NCBI RefSeq assembly: GCF_003334315.1
Contig: NZ_QOWR01000043.1
Length of the DNA stretch: 42,323 bases
Reading direction: 5' to 3' (one strand)
Source of the DNA: Escherichia coli
Lineage (GTDB): Bacteria > Pseudomonadota > Gammaproteobacteria > Enterobacterales > Enterobacteriaceae
The position numbers were made by a program, and so were the translations under genes. Below, piece by piece: positions 3,931 to 42,323 of this stretch (positions within the stretch are counted from its first letter, which is position 1; every line of letters begins with the position of its first letter). The notes under the pieces were generated by a model that did not search any database, had not been told where the DNA came from, and saw only the letters and a list, made by a program, of their open reading frames with translations.

Positions 3931-5196
3931 TTAACCTGAACGACGACGATTACGCGGAGCGCCAGTACGACGCGGACCATTGCCTGTACGTGGGCGCGTG
4001 AGGCGCAGCGGTTTTGGCAGATCGGTCATCAATGCGTCCGGATTGTATTTGCTTACCGGAATTGAGTGACCAATATAGGTCTCAATAGCAGGCAAATTCA
4101 ATGCATACTCTTCACACGCCAGGCTGATAGAGTGACCGCTTGCGCCTGCGCGACCTGTACGACCAATACGGTGAACGTAATCTTCACAGTCATCGGGTAA
4201 ATCGTAGTTAAAGACGTGCGTCACTGCCGGAATATGCAAACCACGCGCGGCAACGTCGGTGGCAACCAGAATATCCAGATCGCCACGGGTAAATTCATCA
4301 AGAATACGCAGACGTTTTTTCTGCGCGACATCGCCTGTCAACAAACCGACACGATGACCATCTGCCGCCAGGTGGCCCCAGATCTCTTCACAACGGTGTT
4401 TGGTATTGGCGAAAATAATCGCTCTGTCTGGCCACTCTTCTTCGATCAGCGTTTGCAGCAAACGCATTTTTTCTTCGTTAGAAGGGTAGAAAAGCTCTTC
4501 TTTAATACGGTGGCCCGTTTTCTGTTCCGGTTCCACTTCAATATATTCGGCATTGTTCATCTGCTCGAACGCCAGTTCACGTACCCGGTACGAAAGCGTG
4601 GCGGAGAACAGCATGTTGAGGCGCTGGTTTGCAGGCGGCATACGGCGGAACAGCCAGCGGATATCTTTAATAAAGCCCAGATCGTACATGCGATCGGCTT
4701 CGTCCAGTACCACTACCTGAATGGCACCGAGGTTAATATGGTTCTGCTTGGCATAGTCAATTAAACGACCCGTGGTGCCAATCAGAATGTCAACGCCGCT
4801 TTCCAGCACTTTCAGCTGTTTGTCGTAGCCATCACCACCGTAAGCCAGACCCAGCTTCAGGCCAGTAGCTTCCGCCAGCGGTTCTGCGTCGGCATGGATC
4901 TGCACGGCAAGTTCACGCGTCGGTGCCATAATTAAGGCACGCGGTTGATTCACCTTGCGATCGGCAATCGCAGGATGAGAGAGAAGATAATGAAACGTTG
5001 ACGTAAGAAACGCCATCGTTTTCCCGGTACCGGTTTGCGCCTGCCCGGCTACGTCACGACCCGCCAGCGTCAGCGGAAGGGCCAGTGCCTGAATGGGCGT
5101 ACAGTTATGAAACCCTTTTTTTTCAAGGGCTTCTACAACCTTCGGATGCAGGGCGAAGTCGGAAAACTTCTGTTCTGTTAAATGTGTTTTGCTCAT
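3931..5196 (-). CDS. rhlB: ATP-dependent RNA helicase RhlB (DEAD-box, degradosome component), 421 aa
   Basis: ORF 3931..5196 minus; DEAD-box motifs (GTGKT, DEAD in [12 protein letters not shown]); Arg-rich C-terminal tail. Confidence 0.95.
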
Positions 5197-41000: not shown

Positions 41001-41951
41001 ATGCTGAGCGCATTTCAACTGGAAAATAACCGACTGACCCGGCTGGAAGTCGAAGAGTCACAACCCCTTGTAAATGCAGTATGGATTGATCTTGTCGAAC
41101 CGGACGACGACGAGCGACTGCGCGTACAATCTGAACTTGGTCAGAGCCTGGCAACCCGCCCGGAACTGGAAGACATCGAAGCATCGGCACGTTTCTTTGA
41201 AGACGACGACGGCCTGCATATTCACTCCTTCTTCTTCTTTGAAGATGCGGAAGATCACGCCGGTAACTCCACTGTGGCATTTACCATCCGTGATGGTCGT
41301 CTGTTTACTCTGCGTGAGCGTGAACTGCCCGCTTTTCGTCTGTATCGTATGCGTGCCCGTAGCCAGTCGATGGTGGACGGTAACGCCTACGAGCTGCTGC
41401 TGGATCTGTTCGAAACCAAAATCGAACAGTTGGCAGATGAAATTGAAAATATCTATAGCGACCTGGAGCAGTTGAGCCGGGTGATTATGGAAGGGCATCA
41501 GGGCGATGAGTACGACGAGGCGCTCTCCACTCTGGCGGAACTGGAAGATATCGGCTGGAAAGTGCGCCTGTGTCTGATGGATACCCAGCGTGCGCTCAAC
41601 TTCCTGGTGCGTAAAGCGCGTTTACCGGGTGGGCAACTGGAGCAGGCGCGTGAAATCCTGCGAGATATCGAATCCCTGCTGCCGCATAACGAATCCCTGT
41701 TCCAGAAGGTGAACTTCCTGATGCAGGCGGCAATGGGTTTTATCAACATCGAGCAGAACCGCATCATCAAAATCTTCTCGGTGGTATCCGTGGTATTCCT
41801 GCCGCCGACGCTCGTTGCTTCCAGCTATGGCATGAACTTTGAGTTTATGCCAGAACTGAAGTGGAGCTTCGGCTACCCTGGCGCGATTATCTTTATGATC
41901 CTCGCGGGCCTGGCACCGTATCTGTACTTTAAGCGGAAGAACTGGTTGTAA
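41001..41951 (+). CDS. corA: Magnesium/cobalt transport protein CorA, 316 aa
   Basis: ORF 40986..41951; recognised start [20 protein letters not shown] at ATG 41001; signature GMNF motif ([11 protein letters not shown]) before C-terminal TM helices. Confidence 0.95.
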
Positions 41952-41962
41952 AAAACGAGAGC

Positions 41963-41987
41963 GGTGGCTTAGTCTGGCTAAGCCACC
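41963..41987. terminator. Bidirectional terminator hairpin between corA and the convergent minus-strand gene
   Basis: ggtggcttag-tctgg-ctaagccacc perfect 10-bp stem; A-run upstream (U-run for the minus-strand transcript) and weak T-rich tract downstream. Confidence 0.6.
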
Positions 41988-41993
41988 TGTTAT

Positions 41994-42119
41994 TCAAAGG
42001 CTCCAGGTATTTAACCCTTTTACCTCTTTCTCATAGAACCATTTGTTCGTGTTAACAGCAACATAGGCTGCTACGGCAATTCCCAGAATGTTAACGCCAA
42101 TTAGTGCACCAACAAATAG
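41994..42119 (-). pseudogene. 3' fragment of a small membrane-protein gene truncated by IS1
   Basis: Minus-strand frame reads ...LFVGALIGVNILGIAVAAYVAVNTNKWFYEKEVKGLNTWSL* (stop at 41994..41996); open frame runs uninterrupted into the first base of IS1 at 42120; in K-12 gene order the gene convergent with corA is yigF, but I cannot confirm the protein identity. Confidence 0.5.
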
Positions 42120-42323
42120 GGTGATGCTGCCAACTTACTGATTTAGTGTATGATGGTGTTTTTGAGGTGCTCCAGTGGCTTCTGTTTCTATCAGCTGTCC
42201 CTCCTGTTCAGCTACTGACGGGGTGGTGCGTAACGGCAAAAGCACCGCCGGACATCAGCGCTATCTCTGCTCTCACTGCCGTAAAACATGGCAACTGCAG
42301 TTCACTTACACCGCTTCTCAACC
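42120..42323 (+). mobile_element. Insertion sequence IS1, left end (partial; continues beyond the window)
   Basis: Begins with the IS1 terminal inverted repeat ggtgatgctgccaacttactgat and continues with the IS1 left arm and insA 5' region as I recall it; only about 204 of about 768 bp are in the window. Confidence 0.92.
42175..42323 (+). CDS. insA: IS1 InsA (transposition repressor / N-terminal part of InsAB' transposase), 5' partial
   Basis: GTG start at 42175; translation [49 protein letters not shown] with zinc-finger CxxC...CxxC; runs off the window. Confidence 0.88.

Follow-up and report, generated by a model that had tools for sequence, protein, structure and literature searches.

The analysed window, a 42,323-nt stretch of an Escherichia coli contig, ends inside an IS1 element that interrupts yigF. 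The insertion point follows codon 85 of the gene and lies 168 bp past the stop codon of corA. Insertions of IS1 rank with the most frequent differences between E. coli strains. A survey of 5,426 complete E. coli genomes found the same junction, exact to the base, in 40 records, with 4 strains present twice, and in these records the DNA on the right of the element is either intact or deleted to one of several points. The whole explanation we favor, to which we assign a probability of roughly 0.93, is that IS1 inserted into yigF as a single event that was later inherited, that deletions anchored on this copy followed in some descendants, and that the contig analysed here was broken at repeats.

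IS1 lies within yigF at the end of the window

The features of the corA-yigF region are listed below in window coordinates.

41001..41951, plus strand: corA (magnesium/cobalt transporter), intact, 951 nt, ATG at 41001
41963..41987: bidirectional terminator-like hairpin, intact, between the convergent corA and yigF genes, stems GGTGGCTTAG...CTAAGCCACC
41994..42119, minus strand: 3' remnant of yigF, codons 86-126 plus stop, stop codon at 41994-41996
42112..42119: 8-bp target sequence ACAAATAG, duplicated across IS1 in relatives with a simple insertion
42120..42323, plus strand: left part of IS1, ending with the window, with the left inverted repeat (IRL), the insA promoter-like site and 49 insA codons
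42120-42142: IRL GGTGATGCTGCCAACTTACTGAT (23 nt), exact match
42127-42154: insA promoter-like (sigma-70-like) site, within the inverted repeat

The initial annotation, made from the letters of the window, had placed the left end of IS1 at 42120, and three observations bear this out. Over the 204 nt from 42120 to 42323 the window has no mismatch to the start of the 768-bp IS1 elements of HS30-1 and further genomes. The IRL occurs once in the window and was absent from 100 shuffled versions (0 expected). Finally, translation from the GTG at 42175 on the plus strand gives 49 codons of the InsA N-terminus. In a profile search against NCBIfam these 49 codons scored 42.8 bits with the zinc-binding domain model NF050000 (IS1_IS1595_Zn), whose cut-off is 28. 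A further alignment, to positions 1-40 of NF033558 (transpos_IS1), stays below the full-length cut-off because only 49 amino acids are present in the window. In the relatives, PGAP starts the IS1 transposase coding sequence 55 nt inside the element, and in 17 relatives with the same junction IS1 measures 767-768 bp, ends with ...AAGTTGGAGTCATTACC and carries an annotated programmed frameshift.

The element is an ordinary IS1. Its IRL and InsA N-terminus are those of the known IS1 of E. coli K-12 (isoforms IS1A/IS1B), no difference from known IS1 was seen in the 204 nt present, and matching copies in the genomes bear the PGAP name 'IS1-like element IS1A/IS1B family transposase'. Eight positions separate the IS1 haplotypes found at this locus, and since all of them lie beyond nt 204 of the element the isoform of the window copy cannot be named.

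The sequence to the left of IS1 was compared with that of K-12. The minus strand from 41997 to 42119 encodes LFVGALIGVNILGIAVAAYVAVNTNKWFYEKEVKGLNTWSL, and all 41 residues are identical to residues 86-126 of K-12 YigF (41/41). The initial annotation was thus correct that IS1 sits in a coding sequence rather than between genes, and its expectation that the disrupted gene would prove to be yigF was borne out. Its description of the minus-strand frame, with a stop at 41994 and open to the IS1 boundary, was accurate in every coordinate. K-12 yigF runs 255 nt past the junction, so the outcome that would have refuted that annotation, a reference frame ending at or before 42119, did not occur. The left flank of IS1 ends at yigF base 126 counted from the stop codon, which is position 4545 of the K-12 locus used for comparison (L003, with yigF at 4420-4800); all positions of insertions and end points below refer to this locus.

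YigF is a DUF2628 inner-membrane protein of 126 amino acids, encoded in K-12 by 381 nt. In Pfam the domain (PF10947) spans residues 17-117 of K-12 YigF (E = 5e-10), while no NCBIfam model matches the protein. The window retains only the last third of this domain, and a hydrophobic stretch from residue 50 to 109 is cut mid-way, at residue 85/86. The remnant frame is open up to the IS1 boundary and for a further 5 codons into the IRL; it contains no ATG, GTG or TTG start and is absent from the program-made list of open reading frames. It is therefore a dead fragment without a start codon. The gene yigF is inactivated, because IS1 parts the last 41 codons from the promoter, the start codon and the first 85 codons.

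The surroundings are otherwise those of K-12, in which corA on the plus strand is followed by the minus-strand genes yigF, yigG, rarD and yigI and then by pldA. The yigF stop lies 42 nt past the corA stop in both, and the hairpin between the two genes, with stems of 10-11 pairs, reads as a terminator on both strands. An identical 951-nt corA (WP_000947159.1) is annotated by PGAP in all relatives examined. Of the co-oriented genes rarD, yigG and yigF, yigF is the last, and if the three are co-transcribed no polar effect of IS1 on its neighbours would be expected. Outward promoter activity from IS1 has no obvious target at this locus. A literature search on yigF or rarD with IS1 found nothing on this locus; one paper lists yigF as a database-derived 'virulence factor', without evidence.

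The junction is shared by an IS1-rich lineage

To count the junction, a 140-nt probe across it was compared with the 5,426 complete genomes, and only matches in one continuous piece with at least 99.3% identity were scored. The 40 records come from humans, chickens, ducks, pigs, frogs, a pangolin and sediment on several continents. Megablast of the flanking 25 kb gave 99.9-100% identity between the window and the junction records, and the flanks of this lineage are 99.5-99.6% identical to K-12. The junction records hold from 29 to at least 40 places that match IS1 (nearly all at least 40), against a median of 10. From these identities we infer a single ancestral insertion that has been inherited in an IS1-rich E. 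coli lineage, and the yigF::IS1 junction would serve as a marker of this IS1-expanded lineage. Independent IS1 insertions were seen at 4517, 4519, 4541 and 4547, between 2 and 28 bp from 4545, and in view of these repeated, independent insertion at exactly this base is, strictly, conceivable. Public genomes already contain the allele, with IS1 and pseudogene fragments in their annotation, and it is routine and known in kind.

The window begins in one repeat and ends in another, as is typical of short-read contigs, and the junction might accordingly be an assembly artefact in which a contig end was wrongly extended into a repeat, with no IS1 in yigF at all. We rejected this very improbable reading, as the same 140 nt are continuous in 40 complete, mostly long-read chromosomes and an assembler would not invent a join that agrees with them to the base.

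Deletions adjoin the right end of IS1 in most relatives

The 40 records were then compared to the right of the element. The initial annotation had anticipated a right inverted repeat followed by a target duplication of 8-9 bp. This is what 13 of the 40 records have: a simple insertion with an 8-bp duplication of ACAAATAG (4538-4545), followed by the remaining part of yigF. In TOE3 and ET220, for example, the left flank ends at 4545 and the sequence past the right inverted repeat restarts at 4538. The expectation failed for the other 27 records, in which no target duplication was found and from 290 to 1,678 bp of yigF', yigG and rarD are deleted, to 11 different end points. The end points, each given as the first base of the K-12 locus after the right end of IS1, are as follows.

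4836: 290 bp deleted, 2 records
5044: 498 bp deleted, 1 record
5125: 579 bp deleted, 1 record
5294: 748 bp deleted, 11 records (the commonest)
5303: 757 bp deleted, 1 record
5317: 771 bp deleted, 2 records (that of EC20-72C-1 was inferred from match length)
5361: 815 bp deleted, 3 records
5386: 840 bp deleted, 3 records
5732: 1,186 bp deleted, 1 record
6105: 1,559 bp deleted, 1 record
6224: 1,678 bp deleted, 1 record

With increasing length the deletions take the 5' part of yigF, then yigG, then rarD in part or whole. None of the 27 reaches yigI, and the longest stops 7 bp before the yigI stop codon. The locus is thus a nested series of IS-adjacent deletions anchored on one IS1 end, with one left junction and 12 allelic states. 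No record was found that keeps the right junction without the left one. This asymmetry needs no special mechanism, because only some 170 bp of neutral space are available towards corA. The losses suggest that E. coli in the wild can do without yigF, yigG and rarD, whereas corA and yigI are retained.

The commonest allele was read in JX21CE33 (L004, 3564-4454). In this strain rarD keeps 296 codons, with the substitution K296R and a stop codon taken from the right inverted repeat of IS1. PGAP annotates this rarD as intact because the inverted repeat supplies the last codon and the stop.

Two routes could have produced the deletions

The initial annotation had named IS1-mediated rearrangement as a possible consequence of the insertion, and relatives with the junction or with a nearby one do display it, as the deletions above and as an inversion in X14-3. 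The mechanism of deletion in the relatives can be inferred in outline. A 768-bp IS1 with insA on the plus strand would have transposed into yigF between codons 85 and 86, sparing corA and the hairpin. From then on this copy would have served as a fixed point from which the DNA beside its right end was deleted repeatedly. The likely route is either intramolecular transposition of IS1, or insertion of a second IS1 followed by recombination between the two copies.

In the two-step route a second IS1 inserts further downstream, oriented like the first, and the interval is then lost by RecA-dependent recombination between the copies. A possible intermediate is found in ET220 (L022, 3034-4836), which has a second, direct IS1 of a different variant (97.3% identity) between yigF and yigG, and hence one copy on either side of the yigF 5' part. 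The junction genomes hold dozens of IS1 copies, and IS1 at the locus varies at 8 positions, with a mosaic haplotype in JX21CE33 that shows exchange between copies. However, most deleted alleles carry the IS1 haplotype TATCACTT, which was read directly in the simple insertion of ET220 (TOE3 has another), and identity values suggest that most other simple-insertion strains carry it too. No chimeric element is needed, since the deleted alleles share their haplotype with simple-insertion strains. We put the two-step route at a little under even odds.

The one-step route, intramolecular replicative transposition by the resident IS1, would leave the same end product, so that the products do not tell the two routes apart. 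Its signature, an inversion between two inverted IS1 copies with a target overlap of about 10 bp, is seen in X14-3 (L021, 224-3800) and counts against the two-step route. In this strain the corA-ysgD-yigE' segment is inverted between the copies; one lies in yigE, with the overlap of about 10 bp at 2478-2487, and the other at yigF position 4519. The right junction of X14-3 is 5294, as in the commonest deletion allele, with an IS1 variant that differs (96% identity).

We also considered IS1 variants as a mark of the deletion mechanism, and discarded them because the haplotypes are common to deleted and undeleted alleles.

Independent insertions in yigF and the pattern of end points

IS1 was also found elsewhere in yigF, in other lineages; most of these insertions come with deletions of their own into yigG or rarD.

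4517: PI24 (L016)
4519: X14-3
4541: EH08-18-36 (L020) and CUPS04, IS1 variant of 95% identity, 9-bp duplication
4541: LF3-1 (L012), with a deletion to 5432
4547: EC96 (L023), in the opposite orientation, with a deletion to about 5144
4685: E1535 (L002), 140 bp from 4545, with a deletion to 5918

Two-piece matches in G5, 2017.06.04CC, TST3/TBE6, L73/PK5074 and EC23HZZ201 would place IS1 at still further positions of yigF. Thus yigF is a recurrent IS1 target, and yigF, yigG and rarD have been lost repeatedly.

The end points were examined for a common feature. At 4 of the 11 (4836, 5044, 5732 and 6105, read in L019, L006, L007 and L001) the last deleted triplet is GTA, as it is at the independent end point of E1535 (5918). 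The background frequency of GTA is 0.015, which gives P of about 1.5e-5; correction for 64 triplets raises this to about 9e-4. This pattern may be an IS1 target-choice preference of a rule not yet described. At two of the GTA end points the deleted side resembles positions 17-27 of the IS1 IRL (TACTGATTTAG). Five end points fall within 100 bp, a mildly significant clustering (p = 0.017). AT-richness was rejected as a cause, as the end points did not differ from background in a permutation test (p = 0.28).

Positive selection might lie behind the repeated loss of yigF, yigG and rarD, if IS1-rich E. coli of the gut and of farms benefit from losing yigG, the RarD transporter or both; a GTA site preference may contribute. 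This reading is drawn from the confinement of all 11 end points between corA and yigI and from the independent losses in E1535, LF3-1, PI24 and EC96. We consider it unlikely.

The source strain beyond the contig ends

The initial annotation had regarded IS1 as the sole departure of the window from canonical gene order. This did not hold at the other end, where positions 1-77 belong to the terminal part of an IS2-family element that lies upstream of rep (ATG at 245). The reverse complement of these positions, TAGACTGGCCCCCTGAATCTCCAGACAGTTGG..., is a variant of the IS2 inverted repeat. ST540 and ESDR8 carry an IS2 at the same place upstream of rep, adjoining a gene for a PemK/MazF-like toxin. 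The exact IS2-like junction of the window was found in no complete genome (best match 96%, in ST540), and the source strain is for this reason not among the 40 records. With IS fragments at both ends, the window is most likely a short-read contig broken at repeats, and the IS1 repeat explains the contig end at 42323.

What follows IS1 in the source strain was estimated from frequencies among its relatives. A plain insertion would give a full IS1, then ACAAATAG, the 255 nt from the 5' end of yigF, and yigG and rarD both intact. The 13 simple-insertion records include 2017.01.04CC, BL12 and GS04, which are about 100% identical to the window over 25 kb. This arrangement is a tenable possibility but falls clearly short of an even chance, given that 27 of the 40 records are deleted. 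The event in the source strain may have been an insertion plus a deletion, because same-junction records of this kind, without the duplication, are those 27. We hold it moderately probable that IS1 is followed by an adjacent deletion of yigF', yigG and possibly rarD, and the 748-bp deletion to 5294, present in 11 of the 27, is the single likeliest variant. The best three two-piece matches over 25 kb (JX21CE33 twice and 2017.13.01CC) are of this type, by margins of a few bases. Against inferring a deletion from these relatives, none of the 40 records agrees with the source strain at the other end of the window. Other rearrangements on the far side account for a small remainder. Thus yigG and rarD may be absent from the source strain, though the window itself holds no sign of this.

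All the best-matching genomes align to window positions 17400-42323 as two segments, and their records are longer by about 36-42 bases, which points to a small indel within the 25 kb, possibly of a repeat unit.

Comparison with known IS-adjacent deletions

Adjacent deletions promoted by IS1 are long known. Reif and Saedler reportedly found in 1975 that such deletions start exactly at the end of IS1 and that the element is retained, as in the present series. Theirs are said to have been selected in the laboratory at the gal locus, whereas the present series is inferred from genome comparison.

IS1 makes target duplications of 8 or 9 bp (PMC12428005), and the element in the relatives is like the IS1 described there, with 768 bp, a programmed frameshift and an 8-bp duplication. 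Stepwise IS-adjacent deletions without duplications have been reported in the E. coli long-term evolution experiment (LTEE) (PMC11708052; PMC4301190). The rbs-operon deletions beside IS150 in that experiment resemble those at yigF in having a fixed IS end, varied downstream points and no duplication (PMC4301190; PMC11708052). They differ in that the element here is IS1 rather than IS150 and that the genes lost are yigF, yigG and rarD, whose loss is not known to affect fitness. Moreover, the rbs deletions arose in a laboratory population, while those at yigF are found in natural isolates from humans, poultry, pigs, frogs and sediment. The 12 allelic states at one IS1 anchor illustrate in nature what IS1 is known to do and do not amount to a new kind of system.
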